The notes below the pieces were generated by a model, which had not been told where the DNA came from, made no database searches, and worked only from the letters and a program-made list of their open reading frames with translations. This document shows, piece by piece, positions 9,525 to 60,070 of a stretch of 64,000 nt of DNA. Made by a program: the position numbers and the translations under genes. Position 1 is the first letter of the stretch. The number at the start of each line of letters is the position of its first letter. Where the stretch lies: the NCBI GenBank assembly GCA_000091205.1, contig AP006499.2, one strand, 5' to 3'. This DNA is from Cyanidioschyzon merolae (lineage: Eukaryota).

Positions 9525-11453
9525 ATGAACGTACATGAATGGACAAAGAAGTACGCACACTGTCATAGGAGACCGTCACGCAGTGAACTACTCAATATCC
9601 ATCTAGTATTAGAACGCGAATGCGTATCCCAGGAGGCAGGCGGCATCGTTTCGCTCGAGGAGACCTCGTTCAGGGGAAACGGTAGCGCCGCACAGTGGTA
9701 CGCAAAGAGGGGCAAACCGCTGTTTGTAAAACAGGTACTCTCGAGCACTCCAACAACATTAGCCCTTGCGGATTTTCAATCGTAGAGTTACGACGAAATC
9801 GCCAAATGAGCAAGATCGTTCAGCACCACTCCATTAACTGAAGCACGCTTCATGGTGCCTGCTTCTCAAAGTCTTCTCGCTGCCCGTATGACACTGCCGC
9901 TTTCCAACACTCGAAAGCAGCCAGGGAGTGCGTGGCTCAGATCGACATTGACAAGCACTTCGTGCCAGCGTATTCTGCCTGGTTCAATACAAACCAATGT
10001 ATCTTCTCTGTTGTCATACGCCATTTTGATGTTCTAAGACGCATGGACGAATCGTTTGCAACCGTGGCGTCGCTCGTCATCAAGTCGTTGTGTACCTTTG
10101 CCAGCCGTGAACTACGGTGCTGCCCCTGTGCTCTTGCGGGGCAGCAATCGAAAAGATTTGCCTCGGTCAGTGGATATATGCTGGTGACGGCGACGGTGAC
10201 GAGCTTGTAGTTAAGGCGTAGTGGATATACAAAGACGAACGGAGAGCTTCGGTGATGCTGCCAAACTAGTACTTCTGAATTCCGCGAAGAAATCAGGTAT
10301 AGAGCATGTCGATTACATGCGTGTCGCCCCGGCACGTAGAGGAAGCAGGTTACTATTGCACTAGTCTCCGCGAGCAACAAGGAAGCGTTCTCACGACCTC
10401 GCGCAGAGCGCTGGCAGAGCTTGATGAAGATTTCTCGCTTAGAGGGAGGAAGTGGGAAGGGTTTTTAAAGAATGATAGAGGGCAACAGAGTATCGAGCTG
10501 CAAAGCCTTTGTCAAAAATTGGCATGTGTCGCGCGACGAGACTCATGTTCAGGTGTTCAGGATAGATGAAGAGCAAGACTTTATGATCAGTGTGGATCCC
10601 GGATTCAACAACTTAATCGCTGTAGCTGTCCCTCTACATCCAGAGGACAGAGCTGAAAATCTGAACGGCGTGAAGTTGTACCAGATCAACTTTTCCAGGC
10701 CTGGGTACCAACAAGAGTCGGGTATGGCAGACTCAAGGCGGCATACCAACAACTTGAATGATTGTGTCAGGACTGGTCTCGACGCTGTGTGCACCGTGTC
10801 GTGCAGCGTGCGCTGCTTTGCACGCTTCATTTAGAGAGTACATCAGCGTAAAAGTGGCTCGTGCGGACGATCTTTGGCTGGAGTATGCGACTTCGTGCTA
10901 TGACCGCCAATGGATTGGGGTTTACTGAGGCAGGGAACGTGCGTCCGCCAACGTCTTCAATGAGTTGGACAAAGAAATGACCGATACGTATTATCGTTTG
11001 GCGTCAGCCTATCACGCAAGACGTGCTGAGGCGCGAAAGGAGTGCATCTCTGATCCTTTGATGAGCGCGTTCAACGAGTGCACGAATCGATGCTGCACGA
11101 CTCGCGTCGATGAGTTCAGGACTGCATTCATGCATCAGGGGCGCGGCCGCACATTGGAGTAGGCAGAGAAGGGGCGCGTGAAGAAGAGACGGACGCACGA
11201 GGTGGTATGCGGTAAGCTGATCGAACGTCAGGTGACGAGGGAATCAAAATTGAGAGGCTTCCCATGTCGTACTTCCACCGGCAAGCATGCGCGCAGGCAC
11301 TCTCTGCACCAAAGCTTGAAAGCCTCGATCAACCTGCGAAATTGTTCCGTGCTTCCGGAGCGCCCAGCGCCTTTGTGTCGAGCAGATAATCGAGGGAATC
11401 GTTTATTGGTGAGGTCGGGGATTTTGCTGACACACACGGAATACTTTCGATAA
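9525..11453 (+). mobile_element. degenerate Fanzor/TnpB-like (IS200/IS605 OrfB, RuvC-fold) element, copy D. It is pseudogenised and split over 5 or more frames
   Basis: ORF 10472..10834 contains VQVFRIDEEQDFMISVDPGFNNLIAVAVP, the RuvC-I G-I-D-P-G block with Asp intact. ORF 11178..11453 contains KHARRHSLHQSLKASINLRNCSVLPERPAPLCRADNRGNRLL. That is a degenerate RuvC-III DFNAAINIRRCAxL...ANF block in which the Asp is replaced by Ser. ORFs 9525.., 9932.., 10306.. and 10965.. cover the N-terminal and linker regions in other frames. Confidence 0.6.
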
Positions 11454-11931
11454 AAACAGTCAATGGCTACGAGACGTGTCATTGGATTCCCGCCTGTGGC
11501 AAAGCACAAATGCAGCACAGTACGGTACGGTCAGCGGTCCATCAGGCTTGGAGTGCCGTCTAAATGCATGAGTATGGACCGGAAACGCTTTTCCTGGGCT
11601 ATCGGAGAACGTGAACGGTGTTCCATTATTCGATATTACAGAGTAAAGCACCATGCCAATCCACAGGCTATCTAATGAGTGAATTCATTATGCGACGCTG
11701 GTCAACTGGAAAGCAGCCCGCAAAGTCCGCCTCTGGTGCGAGGAGCCGTCAATTCAGACACAGAGCACTCGATTCAAAAATCTGGCAAAACTTTTTTCGG
11801 AACGATCCATCCACGAAAGATTGCTCGGAGCATGCAGCTTGTTGGCAATCGTCCTTCGCAGGAATCGGGGAAGCAGCGGCTGCATCCGGCAAATGCATTG
11901 CTACTGATTCGTTCCGAATCGCGCTTGACCT

Positions 11932-12852
11932 CTATCGATTCGCTTGGTACGTATGCCGCATTTGCTTCGTCTCCGGCGCTTGGAGATCTTGTGCGGAGGG
12001 AGAGCGTTTCAATCCTCTGGCAAAAGCACTTCGGATATCAAGGCCGGGTTTTTTTCCGGGCTCATCGCGTCGAGGCTCTATCAATGACGGACCTTCGTTC
12101 TTGACGGAAGACACTGTATTCGATACAGGGTGCCAAACGATTTGCTCAGTCGGCTGCAGACAACGATGCACCGCCACACGAGCAGGCACCTGCTCAACGT
12201 CGAGCCATGCCTGGAGCTGATCCTCGGTTTCCAAAAGTGCCGGCATGCGGTTATGCATCCACTGAATTTTGTCGCTGGCTGCGACAGTAAAAATCGCAAA
12301 TCGATTCATCTCTGTCTCCTCAACGAACAAGGCGGCCATAAACAACGGTCGGTCGATCATGTCGTGCGCGTTCCGAGGCGCCAAGTGGTCCTTGCTCTCT
12401 CTCTTTGTAACACCGTGATAGATAAAATAGGGTATTCGGGATGCTTTCGTCATTGTTTTGATTTTACCCACGTCCTGTTGCTCACCAGGGGCATCTGCAG
12501 CGCTCCACTCGTAAAACCCGTTCGCAATAACCACAGCGCGCTGACCTGCATCTAACGCTGACCGGAAGCTCGCCTTTTCAAGAGCAGTCTCCGCCCGCAC
12601 GTTGATGACGATTGGAGGGCTCTCACCCTTACCAAAAGTTCGCCCACGAATCGGAAACGCCCAGCGCATTGGTTGCAGAACACGCTCGCCTGAAACAGTG
12701 CGCAGCAGTGGTACCGTTTGCTGCGGAGCTACATTGTAGCGCGGCTGGTAGTGGTAGCGCTTTTCCTGGTCCTTCGCGTCAGCCCAGCGAGTTGTTCCAG
12801 CAACTCGTTCAAGCTGTTCTCGAGAGTAGTACAGCGCGAAGCGTCCGCACAT
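11932..12852 (-). CDS. SRAP-domain protein (HMCES / YedK family abasic-site DNA-protein crosslinking peptidase)
   Basis: 306-aa ORF with ATG start. It begins MCGRFALYY (catalytic Cys2 directly after the initiator Met), followed by the SRAP hallmarks YNVAPQQTVPLL and a conserved His in the C-terminal half. Confidence 0.75.
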   Translation of the reverse strand: MCGRFALYYSREQLERVAGTTRWADAKDQEKRYHYQPRYNVAPQQTVPLLRTVSGERVLQPMRWAFPIRGRTFGKGESPPIVINVRAETALEKASFRSALDAGQRAVVIANGFYEWSAADAPGEQQDVGKIKTMTKASRIPYFIYHGVTKRESKDHLAPRNAHDMIDRPLFMAALFVEETEMNRFAIFTVAASDKIQWMHNRMPALLETEDQLQAWLDVEQVPARVAVHRCLQPTEQIVWHPVSNTVSSVKNEGPSLIEPRRDEPGKKPGLDIRSAFARGLKRSPSAQDLQAPETKQMRHTYQANR

Positions 12853-12957
12853 GCACGCGAGCAGCGCTTTTTAAAAGCACTGCGAAGCAAGGCGCCTCCA
12901 GCACACGCCTAGGCACGAACGGAGACAGCGTCGCGGAGATACGCGCATCACACGGCT

Positions 12958-12995
12958 GTGCGTGCGTGCGTGCGTGCATGCGTGCGTGCACGCCA
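12958..12995. repeat. (GCGT)n / GCATGCGT alternating purine-pyrimidine microsatellite in the SRAP/ArgD intergenic region
   Basis: gcgtgcgtgcgtgcgtgcatgcgtgcgtgcacgcc. Related tracts occur at about 15046-15090 and, as the reverse complement (ACGC)8, at about 42186-42217. Confidence 0.85.
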
Positions 12996-13165
12996 GAACC
13001 CTGCCAGATCTCCAAATGGCGCAAGGCGCACGCTGCGCGGCCACCGCCGCCATAGCACTCAACGGATCGTATGGAATCGGGCAATACGCGGCAATACGCT
13101 TTCGCCATACACATCGCGCATTCACTCGCAAAGATCTTTGCAGTAACTGGCAATCCCTTGCAGCC

Positions 13166-23211: not shown

Positions 23212-23335
23212 AGCAGGAAAGTGCTCGAAACGTTCATAATTCATCTGGATATGTTTTTAGTCGCTTTAGTAGGTTTCCGCTGGGATCCGAGAAACGCACA
23301 CGCATACCCTACACTTGTGTCGGATTGAAATGGAG

Positions 23336-24691
23336 CACGGAACTGCTCGATCTAATCATGTCTTGCGAATTTTTCCAAACTTGTATCGATATGCAGCCTC
23401 GACTTTCCAAGTGCAGCGATACTGGTTTACGGGTTCATTTGTCGTTTTTAGGATGATCGGTCGTGGTTTCGGTGTGGTGCATGCGACTATCTGGCGCTGG
23501 ATCTCGCTAGGTGACTGGAATCAAGATCATTGGCGGCATTCGCGACTAAGGGCTCGTAACATAACCGACATGATCACAGCGTTCAGACGTGCAAGCCTCC
23601 AGGATTCTCCTTTTATTACGTGTTGTATACGCGAATCATAATTTTCATTCATGTTTCCGATCTTTCTGTTTCAAGGCAAGTTGGTTGTGCAGCAATGCGC
23701 TCCGCTGGATTGGCGATGAAGGGATCTCGACGTCGTCTCATTACGACTTGTAGAATATGTTATTTCAATCGCTCACTGGACTTGCAAACTCAAATAAGCG
23801 ATCCCTGGTTGAAAGACAAACACCCTAATCTTCGCGCCCGTCGACGAGACGGTATGCGGCACCAGCACCCTGATACCTCGCACGGGACAGGCTGCCAGAG
23901 GCTCCCGAGTCGCCTGTTCGCAAGCGCAGAAAAGCGCCCTGGACGCTGGGTTCAGTCGTCGCAGCGACCGCTGCCGGTGTAGCGCTCGTCACCGCTTTGC
24001 ATGGAGTGAGCGTGCATCGCTCAATATACTTCGACTTGTCCTTCGAGCTGCGCTTTCCTTCGGGTAGTTGCTTCATCGTGGACAACATCGCGCTCCACGT
24101 ACCGTCTACCGAAAGGAACAGCGTACGCTTCCATGTAAAACAGGCGGCGTGCTCCCCGAGAGGATCGCCCAGCACAAGCCCGTGATCGCTGCGTGCGACA
24201 CTGGGCTCGGAAATGGAGCACGGCATCCAAGGCAGCCTTCTTCATTCGTCAAGGGCATGTACTGAGCGACGAGGCAAGCGTGCGCACGCCACTGGGTGCT
24301 TCTCCAGTGAGAACGTACGGCGTACGTGTGAGAGCACCTGATCACAGTTTCGTGTTACCGCTGCGAAGGACGCCACGAGTCTCTATGAAGACAAAATGAA
24401 AATCGCGAGCGAAGCAACGTTTCCAATTCCAGTCTGTGCATGGAATGCGTTGTCAACAGCGCGCAGCGACGGCTTCGGGGCCTGAACGCTGCCATCACCA
24501 TCGGTCGACTGCTGGCATCGAAGCAGGCGGGACACCAGAGACCAGCGTATATCAACATCTGATGCAAGAACTAGGAACAAGGACCCGTCGCAGAGGAGGC
24601 CCGCAAAGGCCGGTGTTGATGACGGGCGGAAGCGACGCTGACGTTCGATAGTACGTCCGAGTTGGAGGACCCGTTCCATTTTATTTTGCAA
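23336..24691. repeat. R-family dispersed repeat, copy R2 (1356 bp). It is about 99% identical to 6243..7598 and in the same orientation
   Basis: See R1. The boundaries are where identity with the R1 flanks is lost (gaaatggag|cacggaactgctcg on the left and ccgttccattttattttgc|aaggggtacagc on the right). Confidence 0.9.
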
Positions 24692-26823: not shown

Positions 26824-27177
26824 GACCGCTTCTCGGAACGTAACCGGCGACACACGGCGAAACCAGGAGGCTTTCAAACTGGCCTAGAGAAGAACGCCTT
26901 CATACGCAGGTGCCCGATGAAAAAAGATTCGCACGCCCACACCCCTGGAAACAAACGTCTTTTAAAAGAAAAAAGTTGCTGCCAGTGGTACAGCAGTGGC
27001 AAACACGCCCTATACAAGAAGTCACCAACTGACTTGCAGACGCCTCCCAGTTTTTTTTCGACCGGCCGCCTACTACTGGTTTCAACTTTTTCTCATATAA
27101 TGCCACTTTGAGAGGTTGTCCAATAAAGTTCCCTCTTGTCGACTCTGAAGGTTTTTTCTCCATCGCCGCACATCTCC

Positions 27178-29287
27178 TTATACATTGATCGCGGCATGAA
27201 AGCCACGGTTCACAAACTCCATACGTTTCCTGCCATCTTTGGTTGTACTTGTCAATGCAAGTAGTCCACGAACTTTCGCCATCCTTTCCATATGCTCTTC
27301 CGTCAGCGGACCGTATTTTGCTATTTCCTCAGGGCTCCGCTGACACTTTTCCATCTCCACTCCCTGAAGTGTACAACCCAGCTAATGGTGTGTATAGGAC
27401 GTTCGGAACTCATCCATCGGTATTGTAACAAAACGCCGTGCACACTCTTTGAATGTTCTTGTCGTTGGAGCTGGCGTAGTCCCTTTTTGGGTCATCTAGC
27501 GCCCTGCTCCGTACGCCACTACCAGCCTCTGATTTTCATCCTCCTTCAAGGCGCTCAACGCATTGAAAAAATTCGCGAACGCCCGCTGCTTCCCGCATTA
27601 CATATTCATACGCAAACGAACCCACCGAGGCTTTGTATACTCCTCCCACAGCGCATCCCAATGGGCAACACGAACTTCCATGAATTTCCGAAAAGCTTCA
27701 AAGTCCGCTCTTCGGCTCGCTCAAAGCTTCCAGGTGATCCTTCATTCCTGCATTCCGTGTCTCGATTCTCTTCCTCGCATTCATGATTCCCGATTCTCGA
27801 TAGTATCTCGCTCACGAGAACCTCAAAAGACGCATATCTTTCTGACGTAAGTTGCCGTTGTTAGCAACTTCTGCACGCTTGGGTGCAGCGATGGTTACGA
27901 TATTCGTATTCCCAGGGTTCGTGCCAATGACAAAATCGTTATCCTCTACATCCTGCGTGGCAAGATACGCCTCCTTCTCATCTCCACGCTTCGTCACGGC
28001 CGCAGCCGAGGGCGGAACTCGACGATCTGCCTCCAAACGCCGATAGTGAACACACTTGGATACTTCACCGGTTTCGATCATCCTAGTGAATACCTTTTGT
28101 TTGCTCGTATTGAGAAGTTTGAAATTGAGGATATTCTTCCAGTACGTCTCACGGTTTTCGCCGGAGAATTCCCGCCTGCTGGCATTGACCTCCGGACTGG
28201 TCTCCCTCATGATGCCGTGAAGGATTCTGGAGTCGATAGTCACGAAATGTGGCTTGATGTTCCACAATGGAACTACGTTGAAACGCTTCCCCATTAGGGC
28301 AGCCTTCCGTCTCTTCCATTCTCCATTTCTCTCCTCTCTCAGCTTCATCTCTGCCTTGCGTTCGAGTTCTCGGTCCAAAAACACGAAATAGCGTAACATG
28401 AGGCGATAGTATCTTTCCTTATCTTTTTTCAACGCTGATATCTTTTCTGCTGGATTTGCCAGCCCCAGTACCGCACGATGCTCTTTAATAGCCGCACGGA
28501 TGACGGAATCTTTATTCTTTCTCCTGTGTGACGCCATCTCTCCGACGAATTCGGTCTCATCTTTATGTTGGCAATCGTTCGTGATGCCATCGATACTGGC
28601 CCATATCCCCTGGCAAGAGAGACCCCGGTGCAGCGCAAAGATGGAGCGTATCAGAAAGCATTCGAGGTTCAAGGTCATAGGGTCCCTCAGGTTCGTGAGG
28701 TACTTCATCGCCCCATGGCAGTAAATATTCCCGTCACCGCTGTATCGAGTACCCTCGCAGCGGCATTCCGCGAAGTTTTCCTGGAGGACATGCACTCGCT
28801 CATTTCTCCAAGACGTTTCCGCTGTGCCAACCATCAGGTGGCGAATAACGGTCTTGTCGAAAAATTCCACCCGCACCTCGACCGTTTTGATGTCCGTCAC
28901 GTCTTCGTTCATCTTCCTCACCAAATGCATTATTCTTGCAAAAGCCTTGCAATCGCTCATGCAGTAGTGCGCGATACGGTCTCTGAGATCCTCCCGCAAA
29001 TTTTGCTTCTACGGATTCATGATATGCTTGAGACGACAGGCTTTCGGTACTATTTCGACGTAGTGTCGTCTTTCCTCGAGCCATTGGCGTCGGGCCGCCT
29101 GCCTTAGCTTCTTCGTCTCATCCTGTTCCTCTCTGCTCTGCACTGTTTTTTCTTTGTTTCCGCCTGCCGGCGGTAATAGCCCTCTAGGATCCTCCACTTC
29201 CATGTCCAAACTTCCCTTTTTCATTTTTGAAAACGAATGCACTTTGAACTCCCCTGCTATAAACCCCGAAAACTCACTTGAATACAC
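27178..29287 (-). mobile_element. degenerate Fanzor/TnpB-like element, copy A. It has the longest surviving ORF (395 aa) but mutated catalytic sites
   Basis: ORF 27812..28999 ends ...[42 protein letters not shown]. That is the RuvC-I block with Asp replaced by Asn (GTNPG instead of G-I-D-P-G). ORF 27178..27360, MAKVRGLLALTSTTKDGRKRMEFVNRGFHAAINV, is the RuvC-III block with Asp replaced by Gly and an immediate stop. Frame breaks occur at about 29009/28999, 27812 and 27606-27360. The N-terminal ~350 aa aligns with the N-terminal fragments of copies B and C. Confidence 0.65.
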
Positions 29288-29699
29288 TCACTTGAGGGTT
29301 GAAACAAAACTGAAATAAAAGACTGTATTTTTCGACGACTTCAACATCGTCGCAGCTTGTACTTTAGAACGAGAAGTCAACGAATATTCAGGATCGCGTT
29401 TCGCTTCAACGGCGAGATGCGCGTCGTGTCCCATGTATACCAGGTATGGAGGTGCGTCTATCGACCGCGCTACATAGAACAAATAACAGAGACTAACGAT
29501 CAAGTATCAACGATATAGAGATTTATTCCCCCTCGATGATAAATGTGAAGAGAGGAAAAAGCTTTCAGTATTGTCGAAGGCCTACCCTCGAGGCGGAAGG
29601 TCCCGCGAGCCGGACAAGTCTGCCAAGCTTGCGCTCTGTGCGACTCTGCAGTTGCGGGTACTTTAGCGAGACCTAAGCTGAAACTCGTACGCAACGCAA

Positions 29700-29930
29700 T
29701 TCTTTCTGGTGCGAGGGGCAGCTAAGCTCCGTCTGGGCGTCGCCCTGGTCGCAGTGGTCTCCAAGTATATCGCTTCGCGCTGCCATAGGCAGCACGTCTA
29801 TCTGCGCAGCTTGCTTGCCCCCAGAATCATGATGCATCCCGATTAGGTATTGCGTGAACCACACCTCGAGCAGACGCCCTCCGTAGTACGGCAAAGCCGT
29901 TGTATCCCCATGTTGCATCTGCTCCAATGG
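29700..29930. repeat. ~230-bp segment related to 48190..48400 (about 75% identity, same orientation)
   Basis: ccgtctgggcgtcgccctggtcg...gtgaaccacacctcgagcagacgccctccgtagtacggcaaagccgt here, versus ggcgtctgggcatcgccctgacc...catgaaccacacctcgagctggcgccttccgtagtatggcgaaaccgc at 48.2-48.4 kb. Minus-strand ORFs 29673..29927 and 48032..48424 share PYYGGRLLEVWF / PYYGRRQLEVWF and QAAQIDV / QAAQIDL. It lies about 400 bp beyond the 5' end of Fanzor-like copy A. Confidence 0.7.
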
Positions 29931-30743
29931 TTTCGTCGTTATTGTGGGTGCTTAAAGCAGACACTCGGCGTTCCTTAGAACTCAAGGAACTACCAGCATA
30001 TCCAAAATGAAATATAAGTTATGGAACTTGAAGGTACGTTGCATCATGCTGGAAGCTTTCCCCACAGCCATGATCCATCCCGCAATCTGGGCCCCATGCG
30101 CAATGAAAGCGTTTTGCCATCAAAAAACGCGACCCGTACCGAACGTTCACGACATTTTTAAACGAATGCACAACTAGCTGCGAAGGCGCAATTCTTGTAT
30201 GCACTTGCTGTCCAGCGCAGCGACAGTTTGGAGCTACCAAGCGCTTGGACCTGGAAGCGTCTTCCGCATCTTTGCGATTTCGAGTGCACGGCAGAGCGGT
30301 GAAGGAAAAGCGTCTAGAACGAAGCTGCGTGTGAAACGCAAGCGTCCCAGCGTACGATGGTACCAGCGAGCGGCTCAGGAGGTCACTTTCAGGCCAAGGC
30401 GGTGTGATAGCTATCGACTCGAAAACGCTCGCAACTGTTCGAGACCCAGCGCCCTTTAAACTCGTGGTCGAAGCACTGGTGCTTTCTGCGTTTTCTGCTG
30501 TGCTGCCACTTGGCTGCTGTTCTCGTCAGTTAACTGGACCAGTTCGCCAAAGTACCAGGTTGTGGCACTGTGCTTGCAGCTGGGAGCGCGGATCGAATCG
30601 TCTGAACCACGTCACCAGCGGCACGCTCTTGTCCGTCTTGTTTATCTCGCGCGTCGTTGCGAGAGCTCGCGGAGTTGCATGGCACACGCTTTGATAGAGG
30701 TCTGGACTGGGGCGAGCGCATCCCCGCCGAGCATCTTCAACTA

Positions 30744-36399: not shown

Positions 36400-37300
36400 A
36401 CGGATCGTTCAAATTGGGCGTACACTGTACGCCCTGGGTATCGTTCTAGTGTCATCGACACAGGCCTGTGGAGACTTTTTCATTTCTGAGACCGCTTCCT
36501 TCATCGCCCTCTTGTCTACGGCTCGAAATGAGGCGGGCTCTCCGGTCCTTCCTGCTCGGTTGTCGGCAATGGAAAGATGTTGAAGGCAGCGTTTCAAGTC
36601 CAGATTTCGCAGATTCGGACTGCTGCCAACGCAGTTCATGCAGAGGCGGAAGTTGCGCTCTACGCTTCGCTTGCCATTTTCACCTGATTGGTAGGGAGCC
36701 ATGGTATGCGCTTCGCAACGGTGACAGTAAAATGTACTCTTGTGTTCTGGTATGCCCATTATACGTTCTGCGTCGAGGAGCCTCCTGTGGTGCGTGAAGA
36801 CTTGCTCCATAGCTCGGTACATGACAGGTACCGAGGACTCGCATCGATGCCAGCTTCCGTTTCCGTACCGAGTCCTAGACGCTTTGATGACGGTAATCGT
36901 CTGGATGATCTCTTCGACAAGCTCTCCGTCTGCTGCACACGCAAGCGGATGCTGTACAATTGGATAGAGGATTTGTTCAACGCGACATTGCCCATTAGAG
37001 AACAAGTACCCGGAAGAAAATCCAGGCTGGAGAAACATTCGAGAAAATTTGAACCGTGTACACTCACCTCATGCAAAGCGGTGATGCGCTCTGCACAGGA
37101 AGCGATCGCTGTGATGCCTGCATTCCTAGTCCAAGGCCCTTTTCCATGGAAAAGGAGGCAATGGGTGCTTCTGAAAGCATTTCCCGTTGGATATTTCATG
37201 CTGCTGTTGCGCTCAGCTTCGTCGATAGCGATAAATAGAAAAAGGAGGGATTGGTCTTTCGGATAGAATCGACGTTGATTGGACGTGACAAGTTTCGTCA
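36400..37300. repeat. R-family repeat, diverged copy R3 (about 75% identity to the central part of R1, inverted orientation)
   Basis: Plus-strand ORF 36688..37266 (...REQVPGRKSRLEKHSRKFEPCTLTSCKAVMRSA...) aligns with minus-strand R1 ORF 6732..7133 (...MKQLPEGKRRSKDKSKYIERCTLTPCKAVTSAT...). The reverse complement of 37090-37140 aligns with R1 7038-7100 (ccatg.aaaa ... gatcgct). The boundaries are approximate. Confidence 0.6.
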
Positions 37301-37489
37301 ACTTCCGGCATGAGCTTGTGAGCAAGCCGATAAAGAACGACGTGGCATAATAATCTATGTAAATGCATTGTTCATGAAACAAAGAAAATGTCTCACGACC
37401 ATGAAGGTATATATACATACTGACGAGCAGACGCCTCCGAATCTTCTTTGATCGGCGGCTTGCCTTAGGTATCAGTTTCTCCCCATACA

Positions 37490-38771
37490 CTTCGAGACTG
37501 AGAAGCTGCCCTACAAAGTTTGCTCGCGTCAGCTCATCGGGTCTTGTCTCCAGAACCGCACATCGTATGATATTGATGGCGGCGTTGAAGTCTTTGTTCG
37601 CGAACTCCATGCGTTTGTTGCCGCTGTTTGAACTCATCAATGCAAGGGTTGCTAGAACCCGCGTCCTGTGTGCCACCTGCTGCTCTTTCAGCAATCCGTG
37701 CTTTTCCATCGCCGAAGCCCTCCGCTGTGTTCTCCCTATCTCGACCATCTGGTGTGTATAACCCAGCTCATGCCTTAGATTTTTCATTTCTCAAAATGAA
37801 TGGGCTTCTTTATGCCCGTAGCTAAGGACCTTCCCCGAGGAAGAAGGACATGTTCAAGAAAAACGACATATGCCTCGGCGTGCCATCGTGTGCTGAAAGC
37901 TTCGGCAATTCGCCCCGTGGAGCGATCATTGCGTTTCAGGACAGAATACACTCCTTCAATGGGGCTGAATCACGGAGCGTATGGAGGAATGGAAGGCAGC
38001 TCTACTCCCAGATAGTATCGGCAAAATCTGGAACTCAAGGGGAATGGTAAAATACTACGTTGTTCAATAGAAGGACGTTGCCGGACTTGAGGAAAAAATG
38101 TTCAACAATTCGACAAAGTGTTCGCTGCTATTGAATGAGCCTTCTCAACGAGCGAATATGAGGACGCCAAATGAATCCACTCCAGCTAGAACAGATGATG
38201 ATGTCCTCGTTCTCCTCGAGCTCGATCTTGTATACAATGAGCTCTATCTCCGAGAAAATAAACATATACGATTGGACCGTTTCGTCTGAAGCAGTTCTCA
38301 TCGGCTGAAAAACAAACCGACGTGCCTGTGCTTCACACGAATCGAGAGGTCCCATGCATGTTGTCGCTGCGATCTCGGTGGAAGATAGCCGTTTTCGTGA
38401 ACCAGGACTGGTTTTGTATGAATGTATCCCGAGTTTCCAGGATCACACGAGCAAGCTGGTGAGAAACAGAGACACCCGCAATAACTACTATTATCGCGTC
38501 GCTTTCCTTAAAGCAATCAAGTGGTCGTTTTTCTAACATGGCCGACAACAAAGTTTTTACCAGTACCTGTTTTTGGAGCAGAGCGCGCATACCTGTTTCT
38601 TTCAGTGTTCTCGACCATCCTAGTATAGTAGTATGACTGACCTGAAGAAGGAATGCAGCCCTCGTTACCATGATCAGTAAATAATATGTATCGTGCATGC
38701 ATTTCGTCTACGATCGAATCGATACAAAGCATAGAAATGTCGATCTCGTACGATACACTGCGAAGAGGCAT
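37490..38771 (-). mobile_element. degenerate Fanzor/TnpB-like element, copy B
   Basis: ORF 36759..37787 begins MKNLRHELGYTHQMVEIGRTQRRASAMEKHGLLKEQQVAHRTRVLATLALMSSNSGNKRMEFANKDFNAAINIIRCAVLETRPDELTRANFVGQLLSLEVYGEKLIPKASRRSKK. That is an intact RuvC-III D-x-N-A-A-x-N-I block plus the family C-terminal tail. The rest of that ORF is read-through into the inverted R3 repeat. Upstream fragments are ORF 38128..38355 (...IELIVYKIELEENEDIIICSSWSGF, the RuvC-I position with the Asp lost), 38333..38698 and 38517..38771 (N-terminal region). There is a stop two codons upstream of the 37787 ATG. Confidence 0.6.
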
Positions 38772-39018
38772 TTGATGACACGCAGCAGGCGCGAAACAAA
38801 ACTGACGTGAAAGACTATAACAATATGCATATAATTGCTACAATCTGCCTTTTTTGAGACAATCGCTCCTGAACGTCCCTGTGCGCTTACCAGCGAGCGT
38901 CAGCAGGCGCGCGCCTTGTACCCAGATCCGCCGTGGGGCGCCTGTCGGAGGTCGCCGCTACGCGACCGTATCTGCGAGCCACCACGCTGACCTGCACACT
39001 GCTGCATGCGTAGACGGT

Positions 39019-41914: not shown

Positions 41915-42185
41915 CTAGTCTGCGTGATATAAAACACTCGCTGTGAACTGAACAGCACGACCGCAGGCCTGCTCCCTCGGACGGCACTCGTTTAAGCAAG
42001 GCGCGCTCTGGGACCCGTCACAAACGTTCTGTTTGGCTACCGGTTACAGCGCTCGTTCGGCAGTAGCTTCCACGTGTGCGATTGGTCGGTTTACGCTGTC
42101 GTACAAGAAGCGCCTCTCGCTTGTCTTTGCAGGGGCTGCAGGCACTGTCGACGCAGAGCCGACAAACTGTGCACGGATCGAGAAG

Positions 42186-42216
<31 letters not shown>

Positions 42217-42217
42217 C
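42186..42217. repeat. (ACGC)8 microsatellite, the reverse complement of the (GCGT)n tract at 12958
   Basis: ggcacgcacgcacgcacgcacgcacgcacgcacc. It is followed at 42281-42300 by (GAC)6 and at 42350-42366 by a (GC)n tract. Confidence 0.85.
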
Positions 42218-42899
42218 CCAACGTGACAGCAAGGCAGCAGCGCTGCGCGCCCGCATCGTTGCCCGTCCGCAGTGACTCGGGCGTCGACGACGACGACGAC
42301 GGCGAAGAAACGGAACTCGAGTGCTGCGGGCGCGTGACGGCGGGAGCGCTGGGCGCGCGCGCGCGCTGAGATCATCTTGCCGGACTCGTCGTTTTCGACG
42401 TGCAGCAGTGAGGGTCTATCGATATATGTAGGTGGATTTGGGATTTTTGGGTCATCTTTTGGGGTGGTTCGCTTGACGCTTTGCGGTTGGAATGAAGTTA
42501 GGTTACCGTAAACGAGCTGATTCGCAGTGCCATGGAACAGGGTTCGAAAACGATCTGGTATTATGATGCAGTACACAAGGTGCACAGCGCCACGCTTCGC
42601 GTTGTTTTCCCGTGAATCATGCATTACACGAGCATTCTTCGAGATTTTTACGGCTGTGTTTCATGGAAACCCGTAGGCACAGTGATTCGGGCCGATGGAT
42701 TTACAAGAAAAACGTTCGGCCTCGTTTCTTGACGACTTGTTCACAAGCTCTTGTCGAATGTTCACTGAAATACGAAGGTAAAATAATCGACTCCGTTCGA
42801 GAGAAAAATCCAAGGCTCTATGTGGCCATGGATGAAGCGGCGTTCGATAGCAGCATGATGCCTCTTAGGGGCTATGCTGCCGGAGGCCCTGGTGTCTTC

Positions 42900-43520
42900 A
42901 GTTTTCATGGAACGGGGTCTTGGACCTCGACTTGAGTCATCGAAGCGATCGTTACCAGGGGAGCGCGCGTCACCGCTTCGCAAAAAAGGAGCATGAACGG
43001 ATCGAAATTACTCGATTTTTCCTCCAAACTGGATTTCTGTTTTCGCACTTGTTCCATCGCAGAAAACATTGCGCTCCATAAACCCTCAGTAGAATGGAAC
43101 AACGTGCGCCGGATTGTGCGATCGATAGAGAACTTGTCGGGGAATCGTCCAGAAAAAGCCCGTGATCGCTGGTACAGCGTCGAGGGCGTTATCGAAGGAG
43201 GGTATCGACCATCATCCGCTGTGCTCGTCAAGGGCATGTACCGAGTGATAAAGCGTGCCTTTATGCGCCATAGGCCGGTGCCCAGAGAAGTACATACGGT
43301 GGACATGTCGGAACGCATTCAAGTTTCGCGGCTGCGACAGATTCTATACAAAGAAGATAAAAACGAGAATCGAATCGTAGATTGCAACTTTTGCATCTGC
43401 ATGAAATGCGTAAACAACATACGGAAGCCGATTAGGTATGCCGGTAGCACTCGTATGAATATCCTTCGACTGCTGACAAAAGAGCAGGAGCAACGAGAGA
43501 ATCCGGCGGATTGAAAGCCC
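42900..43520. repeat. R-family repeat, diverged copy R4 (same orientation as R1/R2)
   Basis: Minus ORF 42905..43318 (...TRYMPLTSTADDG...RTLFHSTEGLWSAMFSAMEQV...FDPFMLLFCEAVTRAP) aligns with R1 ORFs 7013..7252 and 6732..7133 (AQYMPLTNEEG...RTLFLSVDGTWSAMLSTMKQL...IERCTLTPCKAVTSAT). Plus ORF 42993..43514 (NIALHKPSVEWNNVRR...PSSAVLVKGMY) aligns with R1 plus ORFs 6904.. and 6975.. (NIALHVPSTERNSVRF...PSSFVKGMY). The shared 16-mer aagcccgtgatcgctg is present. In R4 the two R1 frames are in one frame. Confidence 0.6.
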
Positions 43521-47528: not shown

Positions 47529-48189
47529 GACCGCCAAGCTCAAGCCCTAAAACGAAACTCTTGTTCAAGAGTCTCTCGCAAAGCGAGCACTAATCACGCT
47601 GCAAACCACCAACACACATGCACGATCTATGTCTTTGTCAACTGAACGAAGCTCCATGCCAGGGCGAGCCACGTGTACGAGGACTGCGAGCGCGACGCCG
47701 CACGTCCGTCCGCCGCTCGAACACGACATGCGGCACGCGTGCGAAACGACGCCTGGCACCGGCTGCAAACACGCGATCGCCACGCGCGGCACACGCTGGG
47801 AATCGCTTCCGAGAGCAGTGCATGGTGATTATGGGCGTTTGTTACCATGAAGTTCAGAAAGGTGGAGATTCGTGATTCTAGCTCTGCGATTCGTCGAACA
47901 GTGCCCAGTGCGCAGCGCGCACGATGGGGCAACGCCGGCTGTCATCAGCGCCTCGAAGCAATTGAACAGCAGCTCGAAGGCACGACGAGTAGAAACTGAC
48001 CATTTACTAGGAACGAAGGGAGAGTGCTTCGTTATCCATGCGCGGCAAGGGATGAGAGGTGGTAGATTTTTGCGTGAATAGGAAACTTTACTTGGTGGGC
48101 GTAAGCTCCCGCGATCCGGGCTCGTACGCGGTGCGTACCCGCAGTGGCGAGTGCGTTGGCGACGCCCGAGCAGTTCGTCCGCAACCCAG

Positions 48190-48400
48190 TGTTTTCTGGG
48201 ACGAGGAGAAAGGTGCCTGGCGTCTGGGCATCGCCCTGACCTCTATCGTCCTGTAGCGTGTCGTTTCGTGCTATCTCGAGCACTAGGTCTATTTGAGCGG
48301 CCTGCGGGATCCCGGGATAACGAAGCAATTCGAACACGAGTCTCATGAACCACACCTCGAGCTGGCGCCTTCCGTAGTATGGCGAAACCGCTCCGTATTC
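48190..48400. repeat. ~210-bp segment related to 29700..29930
   Basis: See 29700..29930. Minus ORF 48032..48424 carries PYYGRRQLEVWF...QAAQIDLVLEIARNDTLQDDRGQGDAQT, parallel to PYYGGRLLEVWF...QAAQIDVLPMAARSDILGDHCDQGDAQT. Confidence 0.65.
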
Positions 48401-49266
48401 TTGCTGTGTCCGTAGCGGTGCCACAGGTGCTACTGGGAGCGCTCAAGCCAAGCTCGGCGCACGATAAAACGTACGAAAAGAAGTATCTCCGAGAGGAAGT
48501 ATGCGAAATCGAACTGGGAGGTCTGGGGCCGTATAATGGTCGCTTTCCAGAATACGAATATCCATCGCGCAATCGAGGATCTCTGGTCGGTGGAAACGTT
48601 ACGCTTATCGAGAACATCAACGGCCGCACGTCGCTCAGGCGAGCAGTGTTTCCCAGTGTGCTGCTCATCCTGCGCTGGCAGCGTCACCGGTGCACGCAAC
48701 GCGCACGTGCAGTTGCTGGACGCCAAGAACGCCCAGAGCGTGCCCTGAAGCGGACAAGGTATCTAACAGGCCTCACACTGTCCAGAACAGTTGTAAAAAG
48801 CCGTTGGCCATGCCCACGCGTACCAATCCCCTGCTCCTGATACGAGCAGACGCGGACCGAGCGACACACAGTCGGCACAGCGCGCTGCGCTGTAGCCTGG
48901 TCCGAAACTTGAACCCTGGTGTCGGTCGGCGGCCAAACTGGCTAAGCTGCAGCGTTCGAGTCGGGTACCACGGCAACGATCTGCAACGAGCTCGACGGAC
49001 CGCAGAGGCTCCTGCATCATCTCTAGAGCCGGCGCGAGCGGGCAGGCAAGCGAGCTCGTGCGTGCACTCGACAGACGGTGCTCGCTGAAACGGCGTGACA
49101 CCTCGAAGGCACCTAGCGCACGCGCCGTACGAACTCGTTCACCATCGTGCGGCAGTGACGTCATGCATTGGATGTAGACCAGATCGCAGACCTCGACATA
49201 CGCTGCGCTCAATGTGATCCTTCAATCTCTCAAGCTCGAGCATGCGCGTGCGAACAAGCACCAGAC

Positions 49267-54361: not shown

Positions 54362-56030
54362 GCCGAAGTGTAGACTCCTTTTCGGACTCTGCTCGAGGCA
54401 CAATACTCCTAAACGAGGAGGTCACAGATAATCCGCGTGCGAACATTCCCGGCCTCGGCGGCTGCGTCCGATCGGCGAAGAGGAAATCCCTTAAATAGGC
54501 GAAGGTAAATTCCATATTACATGGCGCGTCCAACTTTAGCCCATTTTCCGCCGTAGAAAGACGCAGGATCGAGCCAGGCTCATTCGAATACGCAAATGCA
54601 GCCGGGAACCACAGAAGAGGCCTCGAATGCTCTCCAGATGCTTCAAAGCTCCATGAGCCGAAGCGCAGACTTCCCGTTGGTCGTCCTGGTTCGATCAGTC
54701 TTACGATGCTTGTCCTCTGGGAGACGCACCAACCGTCAATGGTTGTTTCGGCGCTTGAAGCCGCAATGCCATACTCGTCGTGTGGAAACAGAGCGCTTTT
54801 CGTCTTCCTGACGGAAGCCTGCCTGAGACTTGCACCCATCTGTGAAGTCAACGAAGCGACTTCGAGCCGCACCAGTTGAAGTTGCCCGCAGGAGGAAGCG
54901 GAGGATACCACACGCCCAAACGTTTAGCGTTCAGAGGTCCGTAACGAGGCATGAACTCTGGATACACCTTGAGCATATCGCAGCTGCCGGGCACAGTTGC
55001 TGGTGCTGGTTCGGACAAAACGAGCGATGACGCTGGACGCGTGGCTCGCCGTTTACGAGGATCAAAACTGAACATGTGTTGGCGAGGGGCGTTAACCATG
55101 TGCGAACCCGCGTACCCTGATCTTCCGAGACTCGCGATGCCCCAGCTTAGCCAGGCGCACTCCGTCGCCCATGTTCCCGAAATAGTGTCGCATGCGGGCG
55201 TCTCTTTGGTCTCTGAGATCGGAGGAGTCTAATTGCGTGCGAGGATAATCGACAGGGATGTGGCTTCAGATCAAGTGCCAACGAGCGGCAAGCTCCAGTT
55301 AAGAGACGAATCTTCATGAGCGCCGAGCCGACTGCCACGGACATGTAGCACCGCTTTGCAAACAGAGGGATAATCGGGAATGATGCTCTTGTGCACAGAA
55401 TTCTCTATCGTGCAACGATACCGCTAATGGTGTTGCGAATACGACCATGGTCAGTCGCTTCTGCTCTGGAGACCGAAGCTCAGGCCCGCGCTTCGTGCGG
55501 CAAACCCTCGTCTGCCGAACGATACACTGTCCTGAGCTCATTGGAAGTATCGGTGGCGTCGCAGCAGAGCTGGGTAGAATCTCGTGCATGTCGGGCGGGG
55601 AGCGGGCCTCATCAAACGGATCCAGGAAACACCAACAATGGACATGATTGTCCCTATACTCAATCTAGATGGACGCGGATGCATGCGATGACGCGTGATT
55701 CGCAGACATAAACTGGAATGTCATAAGACATAAATATACAAAACTACCAAGAGTCCGAGAGCGCGCTTCTGCGCCCCGTAGCGCTAGACGCAACGTGCGG
55801 CACATATTCGAACGCGGTTGCGCTTTCGGACACGTATCCACCAGGTGTGCCCGAGAGATCCTGCGTACTTCTTTTGTCGCAAACAGAGCGAAGAAGCGTC
55901 TACTGTCACCGAAGGCACGCAGTTGGCGGAACCTGGTGTGCAAGCGTCAGCGTGCTGTCACTCTTGGACCAGAGAAGCAGTGCTGTTGACGAGCGCTGGT
56001 GTTTCGGGGTCACCTGCTCCGGGAGCCGCC

Positions 56031-59000
56031 ATGTCGGCGGCTGTGCACTACAAGTTCCGCTCTGCGAAACACTTTGGTCGGGTGCAGTTTGAGGGGGACT
56101 TTATTCAGCTCGCAGAGCTAAAAGTAGCCATTGTGGAGCAAGAAAAACTGCAGTTTGGCGAGGACTTTGACTTACAAGTAGTTGACGCACAAACCCAGGA
56201 AGAGTACTACGACGAAGAAACCTTGATACCGAAGAACACTTCGGTTATCGTGAAACGAGTGCCTGCTGGCCAGAAGCAGGGCATATTGAGTCAGATCGCA
56301 CTCGCAAGGAAAAATGAGCGCTTCGCTGAGATTCTCGACCGCTCAACCGGCGGCACGGGTGCCACAGCGGGCGCTATTGCTGCAGCTGCACGGCAGGTGC
56401 TTGCTGGCAACCTGGGACCCAGCACAACCGCGAACACAGGCATGACGGGCAGTGAACCTGTCCGGCTCCGTCGAGGTGACGAAGACACGCGCCTTGCCTC
56501 CGTGGCCCTCGCAGCTGGCGCAGGAGACTCGGGCCCGAATCCACGAAACATCCAGCGTCCAGGCGGCCGCGTAACGGCCTCGGGAGCGATGGATGGGCCA
56601 CCGCCGGGTGCGCAGCCACCGCCAGGTTATATCTGTCACCGCTGCGGAGAGCCAGGCCATTATATCCAACACTGCACGGCAAACCTGGAAGGCGATGTGA
56701 ATATCATTCGTGTGAAGCGACCAACTGGCATTCCGCGGAGCATGCTAAAAACGATTGATGCACCTGTAGATGGAGGGACCGAGCTTCAGCTTCCAGGTGG
56801 TAAATTCGTGACCCTAGCCACAGACGATCGTGAGTTCAGCAAAGAACCCCTGGCGGTGCGAATGGCGCGCCTTGCGGAAGCACGAGCGGGGGCACGCGAG
56901 GACAATACCATCGCTTCCGACGTTACGACGATACAAGGATCCGAGACGAAGCAACCAGTGCCCATGGATAAAAAGGAATCGGAAACAACTCGTCGCCAAG
57001 TTGCTGCTTCCGATGCGCCATCGGAGAGCGCGGCGTCATCGCCGCGAGGCTCCACGCCAACAGACTCGGTGGAAAACGCTCAGCTGTTACCAGCAGATAT
57101 ACGCCCCGATTTACCCTACTTCCCGTTACCAGGAATGGATCAGAAGGAACATTTCTTTGGGACAGGCGAACTGCCCACCGCGCGTGAGTTCCAGGAAGTA
57201 ATCTGGGGTATTATTTTGATGAATAGGGATCAGCATCCAGAACTTGGGCATGACATGGAGACGGGAACTCAACGCGATGTGACGCGGGATTCGGCGGCAG
57301 CGCTCCAGCCTGAGCCCAGATCCATGGAAAGCGCTGAAGCGCCGAGCACGACAAATGAGCGTGCTGTATCAGCACAGCCGCGGCCGCGGATGACTGCTTC
57401 TGCAGAAGGAGAAAGCTACCAGGAGCGCCGGCCGCAGGCGCACGAACGAAAGACACCCACGCATGTGCAGGATGTATCCAAGCGTTCTCCAACATCTGAA
57501 GCACAAAACGTACCCGAACGAGGCGACAGAGATCCCGACAAATCAGCGCCTCGAAGTGGAAGCGTCGCCAATGCGCGTCCGATACCCTCCAGCTTCAAAT
57601 CCACAGAGACCGCGAATCATCATCTAGACGCAGAAAGGCCAAGACCAGGGCGTCGATCGTCGGCGCTCCAGGTGACGTCGATGGAACCCTCAGGTGCACC
57701 ATTTGGCGAAATCGAGTACTCGCGTGTGTCGACCAAGAATCAGCGCTTGCTACCGCCGGATCGGAAGGCTACTGAAAGCGCTCAAGCAACAGCCCCGAAC
57801 TACGGAAATTCATTGCCGAGGAAACAAGCTGCCTTTGCCCGCAGTGGAAAGATGACTGGGAATACCACGAGACCGGGGCTGCCTCTTGCGCCGCTCCAAA
57901 CGCAGCAGCAGCAGCAGCACCAGCAGCAGCAGCAGCACCAGCAGCGACAGACGCATGTGCAACGCTTTCAGGCTGCAAACCAACACGGCAACGAGGCAGC
58001 GAGCGTGGATAAACAGCACCCCTTGGACAGAGGTCAGCATGCCATGCAGAGAACGGAGCCTGCGCGAGAACGTCGACAACCTACTGTTGCAGCCGCCGAC
58101 AGGAATGCGGTATCGCGAGGCGTTCCGACTTCGAGGGCGACCTCTTCTGGTGTCACAGCAACGGGCTCTACCGCGCCCGTTCGTACCAAAATGCCGCCAC
58201 GAATGCCGCATCAGAGACCAGATGAGGATACGCTGGGTCACAGGCATCATGCAGCGTCGGACACGGAGCAAAAACCTGCCCAGTTGAACGCAAACCTCTC
58301 TCAGCCGCAACCGCTGAGCGTGTCGCGTGCTCGAGAGCGATCAGGTCTGGGAAAAAGCGCTCGGCACTCGCCGGCACCCGTGGCACCTGCTCTGCATGGA
58401 ACAACCCGAAAGCACCCGCGGGCTAGCGACTCGTCACCAGGAACCGAGACGCGCGACTCAAGACCGATTCCAGTTTTTGCTCGTCTGGGCACGAGAGCAG
58501 AAGCTGCAGCGTCTACGCGCGCCCCAGCCTCTGTGCCCCAGCGGAGCACTACCGGGAGCATCGGGTCCGCGGAACGGAGGACGGTGCCGCCAGCGCATCC
58601 GCCTCCTGCAGACGCGTCGCAGCTCAAAGGCAAAAACTCCTCCCCGATGAATCAACAAGGCGAATATCTACACCGAGCGAGTGTACGCGCACCACCAAAG
58701 GTTCCGGAAAAGCGTCCGGCAGCGACAGCAGCTGTTGGCGACGACAAGCGCTCCCGGAACACGCCGAGCTCAGCCGAGCGGGCCGCCGCTAACGTCTTTG
58801 AACGATTAGGACCAGCGATACCGGTGCCTCCTCGTCTTGCTGGGCGTATTTCGAGCGGAAAAGTCAGCGACGGTGAACGCGGAGCGAACGCCTCTACCGG
58901 TGCATCTGGTGTGGTCGCCAACGACGCCTCGAAAACGAAAACGAACCTACGGGCAGTGCACGCGAAGCAGAGCGTCCCTATGACACAGCAAAAAACACCC

Positions 59001-59072
59001 GTGCCGACATATTCCTCGAGTGAAACAGGTTCAAGTCGTGCCCGGAACAGGGCTGCAAACTTGCCGTGGTAA
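56031..59072 (+). CDS. RBBP6/Mpe1-like protein. It has an N-terminal DWNN ubiquitin-like domain, a CCHC zinc knuckle, and a ~850-aa disordered tail with poly-Gln. No RING recognised
   Basis: The ORF opens at 55818, but the product starts at ATG 56031. MSAAVHYKFRSAKHFGRVQFEGDFIQLAELKVAIVEQEKLQFGEDFDLQVVDAQTQEEYYDEETLIPKNTSVIVKRVPA is colinear with the RBBP6 DWNN domain (MSCVHYKFSSKLNYDTVTFDGLHISLCDLKKQIMGREKL...DLQITNAQTKEEYTDDNALIPKNSSVIVRRIP). The zinc knuckle is CHRCGEPGHYIQHC. The remainder is S/P/R/A/Q-rich with QTQQQQQHQQQQQHQQRQ from the (CAG)n tract at 57897-57950. Confidence 0.7.
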   Translation: MSAAVHYKFRSAKHFGRVQFEGDFIQLAELKVAIVEQEKLQFGEDFDLQVVDAQTQEEYYDEETLIPKNTSVIVKRVPAGQKQGILSQIALARKNERFAEILDRSTGGTGATAGAIAAAARQVLAGNLGPSTTANTGMTGSEPVRLRRGDEDTRLASVALAAGAGDSGPNPRNIQRPGGRVTASGAMDGPPPGAQPPPGYICHRCGEPGHYIQHCTANLEGDVNIIRVKRPTGIPRSMLKTIDAPVDGGTELQLPGGKFVTLATDDREFSKEPLAVRMARLAEARAGAREDNTIASDVTTIQGSETKQPVPMDKKESETTRRQVAASDAPSESAASSPRGSTPTDSVENAQLLPADIRPDLPYFPLPGMDQKEHFFGTGELPTAREFQEVIWGIILMNRDQHPELGHDMETGTQRDVTRDSAAALQPEPRSMESAEAPSTTNERAVSAQPRPRMTASAEGESYQERRPQAHERKTPTHVQDVSKRSPTSEAQNVPERGDRDPDKSAPRSGSVANARPIPSSFKSTETANHHLDAERPRPGRRSSALQVTSMEPSGAPFGEIEYSRVSTKNQRLLPPDRKATESAQATAPNYGNSLPRKQAAFARSGKMTGNTTRPGLPLAPLQTQQQQQHQQQQQHQQRQTHVQRFQAANQHGNEAASVDKQHPLDRGQHAMQRTEPARERRQPTVAAADRNAVSRGVPTSRATSSGVTATGSTAPVRTKMPPRMPHQRPDEDTLGHRHHAASDTEQKPAQLNANLSQPQPLSVSRARERSGLGKSARHSPAPVAPALHGTTRKHPRASDSSPGTETRDSRPIPVFARLGTRAEAAASTRAPASVPQRSTTGSIGSAERRTVPPAHPPPADASQLKGKNSSPMNQQGEYLHRASVRAPPKVPEKRPAATAAVGDDKRSRNTPSSAERAAANVFERLGPAIPVPPRLAGRISSGKVSDGERGANASTGASGVVANDASKTKTNLRAVHAKQSVPMTQQKTPVPTYSSSETGSSRARNRAANLPW

Positions 59073-59149
59073 ACACAGCAACTGAATATGTTGGCGATGG
59101 TGTACCAGGAAGCGAAAACGTATCGCGAACATGGGGTAAATGAATATCC

Positions 59150-60070
59150 ACCCGGAGACATGTGCCTGCCTTTTTCGACCGGGCTCCTGCTGTCGGCTTT
59201 CGTTTTCTCCTTGCACACTTCGAACATCAGAGGCGGTGCGACGAAGTTAGGTTTCGTCAGCTCTGCGTGTCTCGTCTTGAGCGCTGCACATCTCCTGATA
59301 TTGATAGCAGCGTTGAAGTCTCGGTTCGCAGACTCCATGCGTGCAGTGCCTCTGGAGCTACTCACTCATGCAAGGAATGGTACAACTCGCGCCCTGTGTG
59401 CCACTACAGTCTCGTGATCGTCTCGTCGATGAAACACCTTTGCTCTCCGATTTCCCCTCATCTTCATCGTCAGTTGCTCTTCTTCGCTCGACGGTCGCAC
59501 AGAAGAGGATGTTTTCCGGTTTTATCGGATAGCCAGCGATGTCGGTCCTTCAGAATCCCCGAATTCCATGCTCATACCTTTCCCTTCTATTTTTATTTCT
59601 TCAAAAAAACACAGTTGTTTATGCCCTCAGATGAGGACCCTCCCGGAAGGAGACGGTCTTGCAGAAGAACGACGAAATGTGCCCTGGTATCACCGTGTGG
59701 TGAACGCTTCAGCGCTTGGCGCAGTGGCGCAATCACTAGGTTTCGTCATAGAAACGCCTGCTCTTCATAGGACTGAACCACCGAATGTACGGAGGAATAA
59801 AAAGCCGCTCTACCCTGACAGAATCAGCGATAGATCGAACGCAAGTGGAATGGAGAAATACCACAATATCCAACGGAAAGACGTCGTCAGACCTCAGGGA
59901 AAAGTCTTCAATTGTTCGATAAAATGGTTCGTGCTGTTGTATGAGCCTTCTCTACGAGCGAAACTGAGGTCGCCGAATGGTTCCACTCCCGCACGAACAG
60001 GTGGTGTCCTTGTTATCTACGAATTCGTTCGTTGAGAATATCAGTTTTTGGCGCTGATCGCATACGCTTC
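59150..60070 (-). mobile_element. degenerate Fanzor/TnpB-like element, copy C. It has an internal deletion and an in-frame stop, and abuts or overlaps the 3' end of the RBBP6-like gene
   Basis: Reverse-strand translation of 59520->59300 in one frame gives ...MKMRGNRRAKVFHRRDDHETVVAHRARVVPFLA*VSSSRGTARMESANRDFNAAINIRRCAALKTRHAELTKPNFVAPPLMFEVCKEKTKADSRS. A TGA interrupts the conserved block (the ORF-track 'M' at 59365 is the GTG that follows it). Upstream fragments in other frames (59880-60070) align with the N-terminal region of copy A (FVREWNHSATSVSLVEKAHTTARTILS ~ FVGEMASHRRKNKDSVIRAAIKEHRAVLG; VFPLDIVVFLHSTCVRSIA ~ [19 protein letters not shown]). The RuvC-I/II region is missing, a deletion of about 500 nt relative to copy A. 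Confidence 0.6.

Follow-up and report, generated by a model that had tools for sequence, protein, structure and literature searches.

A 64,000-nucleotide stretch of Cyanidioschyzon merolae DNA (GenBank assembly GCA_000091205.1, contig AP006499.2), hereafter the window, contains dead copies of the transposable element family CMe-1A, the carrier of the Fanzor1 protein CMe-1, at four loci designated A to D; we put the probability of this reading at about 0.95. Fanzor1 is the eukaryotic relative of bacterial TnpB, and the biochemistry of Fanzor proteins was established in 2023. CMe-1 is the sole Fanzor1 family given for C. merolae in the survey by Bao and Jurka (2013, Mob DNA 4:12, PMC3627910; Repbase), where the carrier element CMe-1A has a consensus of 3169 bp, a product of 734 residues and about 150 genomic copies, each about 80% identical to the consensus. 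The element is described there as lacking terminal inverted repeats (TIRs), with its target site duplication undetermined, and its 5′ 635 bp are 95% identical to a separate short non-coding element, TE-N2_CMe, present in about 70 copies (PMC3627910). Some CMe-1A copies still encode an intact Fanzor1, the coding capacity having been retained unexpectedly long (PMC3627910), which agrees with the expectation of an earlier note on this window that intact copies may exist elsewhere in the genome. Since the family has been in the literature since 2013, reading the window loci as its copies is correct and not new.

The CMe-1A consensus was taken from the supplement of PMC3627910 and then mapped onto the window (Table 1). 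Locus B proved to be a full-length element: it matches consensus positions 2-3169 with 83.1% identity by blastn, and the global alignment gives 83.9% identity over 3152 aligned bases, with a Kimura two-parameter distance of 0.18. Its open reading frame (ORF), 5′ non-coding region and 3′ end are those of CMe-1A; a terminal hairpin lies in its 3′ untranslated region (UTR), and, as published for the element, no TIRs are evident. The limits of 27.2-29.3 kb proposed previously were too short and did not include the 0.9-kb non-coding 5′ part. Ten lesions interrupt the reading frame of locus B: six in-frame stops and four indels that break the frame, of which one lies at the start codon. Locus B is the only one of the four that belongs to CMe-1A at the DNA level, that is, with about 80% identity over most of the 3169 bp; loci A, C and D do not reach this.

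The relationship of the four loci to one another was evident at the protein level. When translated frames of the four loci were searched against the window by tblastn, the loci matched one another (E values down to 1e-20) and nothing else. The frame-corrected pseudo-protein of locus B (753 residues) has 32 close relatives at E ≤ 1e-137 in hot-spring metagenomes, the best of them being P0001, a protein of 752 residues that looks intact. A family profile hidden Markov model (HMM) of 88 representatives, run over all 2075 six-frame fragments of the window, matched solely the same four loci, and all matches were colinear: locus A corresponds to profile positions 289-604 (E values of 2e-10, 2e-9 and 8.5e-6), locus B to positions 3-601 (6e-69 plus further fragments), locus C to positions 535-609 (1e-11) and locus D to positions 565-598 (8e-7). 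The peptides quoted in the earlier note were found as well, RMEFVNRGFHAAINV in B, RMEFANKDFNAAINI in C and RMESANRDFNAAINI in D. Its statement that the copies can be aligned over the whole protein length holds for B only, as A, C and D cover partial residue ranges. The family is interspersed and multi-copy, with four copies in both orientations in 64 kb and 71 metagenomic loci in different contexts.

Table 1. Positions of the CMe-1A-related sequences and of the repeat R in the window, followed by TE-N2_CMe-like sequences in metagenomic loci (numbered within each locus).
Feature	Position	Strand	Identified by
Locus A, old relic of the Fanzor1 C-terminal half	10349-11420	+	tblastn with CMe-1, profile HMM
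Locus B, full-length CMe-1A element	26956-30121	-	blastn and global alignment to consensus
Locus B, 5′ non-coding part including the TE-N2_CMe-like module	29210-30121	-	
Locus B, Fanzor1 pseudogene	about 27013-29209	-	
Locus C, internally deleted derivative	37419-38811	-	blastn, tblastn, alignment to D
Locus D, internally deleted derivative related to C	59195-60288	-	blastn, local alignment, C/D alignment
Locus E, solo non-coding 5′ module of CMe-1A (TE-N2_CMe-like)	48082-48600	-	blastn
R copy	~1-264	-	
R copy	6230-7596	+	
R copy	23323-24689	+	
R copy R3	~36409-37418	-	
R copy	~42612-43514	+	
TE-N2_CMe-like, L019	3698-4047		
TE-N2_CMe-like, L032	1859-2503		
TE-N2_CMe-like, L031	1313-1622		
TE-N2_CMe-like, L013	1099-1535		
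TE-N2_CMe-like, L015/L016, L022, L030			

State of the four copies

Locus A resembles CMe-1A at the protein level only. It corresponds to CMe-1 residues ~340-705, spread over three frames at 26-36% identity (26-35% in tblastn), and blastn against the CMe-1A consensus gave no DNA-level match. It was previously thought to begin at 9.5 kb; nothing significant was found in 9525-10350, and the detectable remnant is shorter accordingly. Locus A is a fragment of the nuclease half, far older than B.

Loci C and D are alike in that both share with CMe-1A the 3′ coding end (72-75% at the DNA level) and the start-codon region, and differ from it in having a different 5′ region and large internal deletions. 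In locus C, positions 37419-37772 match consensus 2736-3092 with 72% DNA identity over 359 bp, and codons ~611-711 lie at 37473-37772 with 59% protein identity to CMe-1; a 5′ region homologous to that of D leads into the start-codon area, which is fused directly to codon ~611. In locus D, positions 59256-59395 match consensus 2841-2983 with 75% DNA identity over 143 bp, the start codon and ~52 N-terminal codons are retained (59405-59600, aligned to consensus 886-1062 with a z-score of 12 relative to shuffled sequences), and codons ~640-713 lie at 59195-59413. The two loci can be aligned to each other with ~70% DNA identity across three blocks, roughly 900 bp; they share a 5′ region (70% identity, about 450 bp or longer) with no convincing counterpart in CMe-1A, and their coding parts are 54-59% identical to CMe-1. 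As the breakpoints of C and D differ, the deletions are probably independent.

The catalytic positions have decayed in every copy, in the way the earlier note had listed. In locus B the RuvC-I aspartate is replaced by asparagine (GTNPG) and the RuvC-III aspartate by glycine, with the glutamate of the DEF block retained. Locus A keeps the RuvC-I aspartate (SVDPG) and the DEF glutamate (RVDEFRT) and has serine in place of the RuvC-III aspartate (HQSLKASINL). The RuvC-III aspartate is kept in both C and D, RuvC-I and RuvC-II are gone from both, and in D the RuvC-III block is closely preceded by a TGA at 59366-59368. All four copies are dead, none being able to make a protein, and they are neutral debris within intergenic DNA.

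Both deleted copies abut other sequences. The 3′ UTR of locus C is truncated at the start of R3, a copy of a second repeat described below, which lies on the same strand and begins exactly where the CMe-1A 3′ UTR homology is lost; probably either R3 or relic C was truncated by, or inserted into, the other. The 342-residue ORF 36759-37787 is a read-through chimera of R3 and relic C. The 3′ end of locus D adjoins the stop codon of a host gene of 1084 residues (55818-59072, plus strand), and the 237-residue ORF 58652-59365 on the minus strand begins within relic D and overlaps the 3′ end of this gene in antisense; it is an artefact of their adjacency and no gene.

Relation to Fanzor1 and alternative readings

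With P0001 as a query, an exhaustive HMMER search at E ≤ 1e-3 yielded 1232 representatives, many of which cover the full length with 28-42% identity. Compared with the PDB, the 88-sequence profile matched the Fanzor1 proteins of known structure: Parasitella parasitica PpFz1 (9CF0, E = 9.6e-21), Spizellomyces punctatus SpuFz1 (8GKH, 1.2e-12) and Guillardia theta GtFz1 (9CER, 1.3e-7). This deeper profile was needed for the link, as PDB searches with the single CMe-1 sequence or with a shallow profile of 32 sequences returned noise only. The profile similarity to these proteins is significant across the WED/RuvC half, where the family blocks FTGTIxTDGVS, DPGR, DEFRT and NRDxNAAxN fall on the corresponding Fanzor1 blocks, aligning as an upstream F-x-G-x-I-x-TDG-V-S, DPG, DE[FY]xT[ST] and NRDxxAxxN; the N-terminal half of CMe-1 aligns only partly, and CMe-1, unlike the three proteins, is not known to have an omega-RNA, a TAM or cleavage activity. 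In sets of 88 and 68 representatives, no substitution of D484 or E656 occurs and at least 90% of the sequences have D725, and 11 of the 68 representatives match the Pfam family PF07282 (Cas12f1-like TNB), with the best E value of 5.4e-6. Taken with the 83-84% identity of locus B to CMe-1A, these matches bear out the earlier description of the loci as relics of Fanzor/TnpB-like transposons; that note had named the lack of any profile match to TnpB or Fanzor as the result to be expected if it were wrong, and the family profile does link the loci to Fanzor1.

The CMe-1 family has in common with bacterial TnpB (OrfB of IS200/IS605 and IS607) and Cas12f the order of the RuvC triad and the RDxNAAxNI signature, and CMe-1A resembles IS200/IS605 elements in having no TIRs and in carrying hairpins near both ends. 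It differs from TnpB in that CMe-1 is about twice as long, its RuvC-II glutamate is in the shifted Fanzor1 position, and no TnpA-like transposase is associated with it; the window sequences and P0001 also stay below the PF01385 and PF07282 thresholds, although some more distant relatives match PF07282. Judged by these features, the loci are homologous to TnpB, yet are to be classed as Fanzor1 and not as TnpB. An active element would encode a protein of ~734 residues with a TnpB-type RuvC nuclease as its C-terminal half, and the predicted catalytic residues would be the aspartate of DPG, the glutamate of DEF-R-T (the shifted RuvC-II glutamate typical of Fanzor1) and the aspartate of NRD-NAA-N. 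By analogy with SpuFz1 and other Fanzors examined experimentally, the 3′ end of an element with an intact CMe-1 gene would be the source of an omega-RNA, and CMe-1, carrying this RNA as its guide, would cut matching DNA.

Several observations weigh against the assignment of the loci to the Fanzor1 family CMe-1A. Neither the ORFs of the window, eight of which were tested, nor P0001 reached any Pfam TnpB model when searched alone (P0001 scored E = 0.23 and 12 bits against PF07282, with a cut-off of 26.3), and five close homologues likewise gave no match to a TnpB family in Pfam. The AlphaFold2 model of P0001, built from the 32-sequence alignment, had a predicted local distance difference test score (pLDDT) of 34 and was unusable, providing no confirmation at the level of the fold. 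A C4 zinc ribbon between RuvC-II and RuvC-III is a characteristic part of the Bao-Jurka motif and has been lost in some TnpB and Cas12 lineages. SpuFz1, PpFz1 and GtFz1 have this CxxC...CxxC ribbon, whereas its canonical form is absent from CMe-1 and its close relatives, locus B and P0001 among them; in CMe-1 the segment in its place reads TSYTHHELGC-x10-C...GLLALVSTT, i.e. H-H-x3-C-x10-C, and the wider family keeps only GLLWC of it. To the best of our knowledge, nuclease activity, an omega-RNA and a transposition mechanism have never been demonstrated for the CMe-1 family. Finally, locus A could represent a separate lineage and not an old CMe-1A copy, given its lack of DNA similarity to the consensus.

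The last point may be extended to C and D, in that all three could be relics of one or two additional, older C. merolae Fanzor1 lineages that the 2013 survey did not list. Besides the low protein identity of A, the common 5′ region of C and D, unmatched in CMe-1A, and the divergence of their coding parts argue for such lineages. Nevertheless, CMe-1 and sequences near to it came out closest to A, C and D whichever comparison was made, the identities observed could arise by neutral decay alone, and a different 5′ module does not define a separate Fanzor lineage, as the corresponding regions are interchangeable among the metagenomic relatives of CMe-1A. Separate lineages are therefore possible, though we lean towards the view that the three loci are old members of the CMe-1A family.

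The shape of C and D raises a different question, namely whether they belong to a non-autonomous family of deletion derivatives mobilised in trans by a full-length element, or are full-length insertions that were later deleted internally. Each retains both ends and lacks the interior of the ORF, which is the usual shape of non-autonomous DNA elements, their 5′ and 3′ parts are shared at about 70%, and a short non-coding relative in about 70 copies, TE-N2_CMe, has already been noted (PMC3627910). A non-autonomous family is rather unlikely, however: the junction in C joins the start area to codon ~611, whereas D retains ~52 codons and resumes at ~640, which fits two independent deletions better than the amplification of a single deleted progenitor, although two copies are too few for a decision. 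That the shared blocks come from a domesticated nuclease gene or a family of host proteins, with no mobile element involved, is scarcely credible. ORFs derived from Fanzor can persist for long, and CMe-1A has retained its coding capacity unexpectedly long (PMC3627910), but every window copy is ruined by stops, frameshifts or large deletions, the copies lie between genes in both orientations, and the abundance of the element in the genome (about 150 copies, PMC3627910) as well as the varied contexts of the 71 metagenomic loci, of which about two have a long frame, are those of a transposon.

Anatomy of the element in metagenomic relatives

The anatomy of the element was examined in the 71 CMe-1A-like metagenomic loci (L001-L071). 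In most of these copies the common sequence begins near consensus position 645, and what precedes it varies: unique DNA, a TE-N2-like module pointing either way, or another module that recurs. As a lead only, the published 5′ 640 bp of CMe-1A may be an interchangeable module. TE-N2_CMe-like sequences, again in either orientation, were also observed next to CMe-1A-like cores, either directly on their upstream side or some 55 bp beyond their downstream end (Table 1), and this adjacency suggests a shared insertion target or two elements inserting side by side. In the window, a solo module of this kind is found at locus E, which matches consensus positions 10-541 with 70.7% identity (blastn, E = 1e-67) and in which the family profile HMM detected no Fanzor coding sequence.

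Within the coding region, an in-frame unit of ~75-80 bp just upstream of RuvC-I (consensus 2117-2196) is present in one to five tandem copies in the metagenomic loci, e.g. L010 3698-3999 and L014 3680-3905, and as a single copy in the C. merolae consensus and in locus B; it encodes an acidic linker, KHEEKKEA.PATQEVQDNDFVV. A frame of at least 700 codons is kept at about 2 of 72 loci, so the CMe-1 family is mostly dead in the relatives too.

At the other end, T occupies the first base beyond the published 3′ terminus in 31 of 36 non-redundant copies and the second in 32. This is again a lead only, by which the element would run at least 2 nt (TT) beyond the published 3′ end and its conserved core would start near 645. 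The next ~10 bases are T/G-rich and lengthen the 3′ hairpin (-8.7 kcal/mol with the own flank versus -5.8 kcal/mol with distal 14-mers, p = 1e-4), and the terminal hairpin is strand-specific (-19.0 kcal/mol for the sense and -12.3 kcal/mol for the antisense strand, p = 2e-7). Provided that the lead on the 3′ arm holds, the hairpin of locus B may extend to about 26932. Covariation of the T/G-rich flank with the upstream hairpin arm was considered and downgraded to a lead: flanks swapped between copies stabilised the hairpin almost equally (p = 0.06-0.08 for 14, 20 and 30 nt). RNAalifold, applied to 49 and then to 33 aligned 3′ ends, gave no consensus structure. For these two reasons neither covariation nor an omega-RNA is claimed. 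Rfam and tRNA scans of the window found nothing.

The features above can be combined into one tentative and rather improbable proposal. The CMe-1 element would be a small core, reaching from ~645 to a few nucleotides past the 3′ end, with interchangeable 5′ modules upstream of it; the core would end in a long, G-U-rich hairpin on the sense strand followed by unique DNA, as an omega-RNA scaffold and its guide would look, and CMe-1 would be a native Fanzor1 of C. merolae if an intact copy still gave rise to both protein and RNA.

A second repeat family and the significance of the relics

The earlier note had stated that the window contains no other mobile gene, and this was not borne out, as a second interspersed repeat family, R, is present in five copies. 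R is unrelated to CMe-1A at the DNA level, and its copies are 36-44% identical as protein. The copies at 6230 and 23323, which have the same orientation and unrelated flanks and are separated by 17 kb, show 98.98% identity along 1367 bp, and this points to recent transposition, duplication or gene conversion, unlike the old Fanzor relics. No convincing TIRs were found in this 99% pair, the best candidate being a 7/8 match of CACGGAAC at the left end to GTTCCATG ~12 bp inside the right end. By eye, R contains DDE-like motifs (AIDEA or AMDEAAF and, ~85 residues away, IVDNIALH or IAENIALHKPS) and a C-terminal CxxC...CxxC. Its pattern CxxC...CxxC...R-G-L-N-A-A-I was considered as a sign of a TnpB-like gene, which was rejected on the Fanzor profile value (E~6) and on the upstream motifs, more like those of a DDE transposase. 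Attempts to classify R revealed no Pfam or PDB relative, a comparison with the Pythium mariner transposase failed, and two large protein searches returned only the same ORFs in other Cyanidioschyzon assemblies. Another R copy adjoins a CMe-1A-like element in the metagenomic locus L049 (1137-1548).

The G+C content of 52-62% and the long housekeeping ORFs without introns are explained by its origin from C. merolae 10D, and the 306-residue ORF 11932-12852 (minus strand) is identical to XP_005538022.1 of that strain, which is encoded on a 1.23-Mb chromosome. With about 150 copies in a genome of 16.5 Mb, four Fanzor relics in 64 kb are several times as many as the average would predict. Together with the five R copies and the TE-N2-like piece, they suggest a location of the window in a chromosomal region rich in repeats.

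The value of the finding is in annotation and little in discovery: five pieces of the CMe-1A family lie within 64 kb, and the apparent ORFs of up to 395 residues there should not be called as genes. Should the proposal on the element's architecture be true, a very small and tractable red-algal genome would hold a native, testable Fanzor1 from a clade without the canonical zinc ribbon, and loci A, C and D would be the traces of an earlier wave, or of more than one, of that system. The intact relatives (e.g. L001 and P0001) and the leads at the 3′ end may serve as starting points for the search for a native Fanzor1 in this tractable alga.

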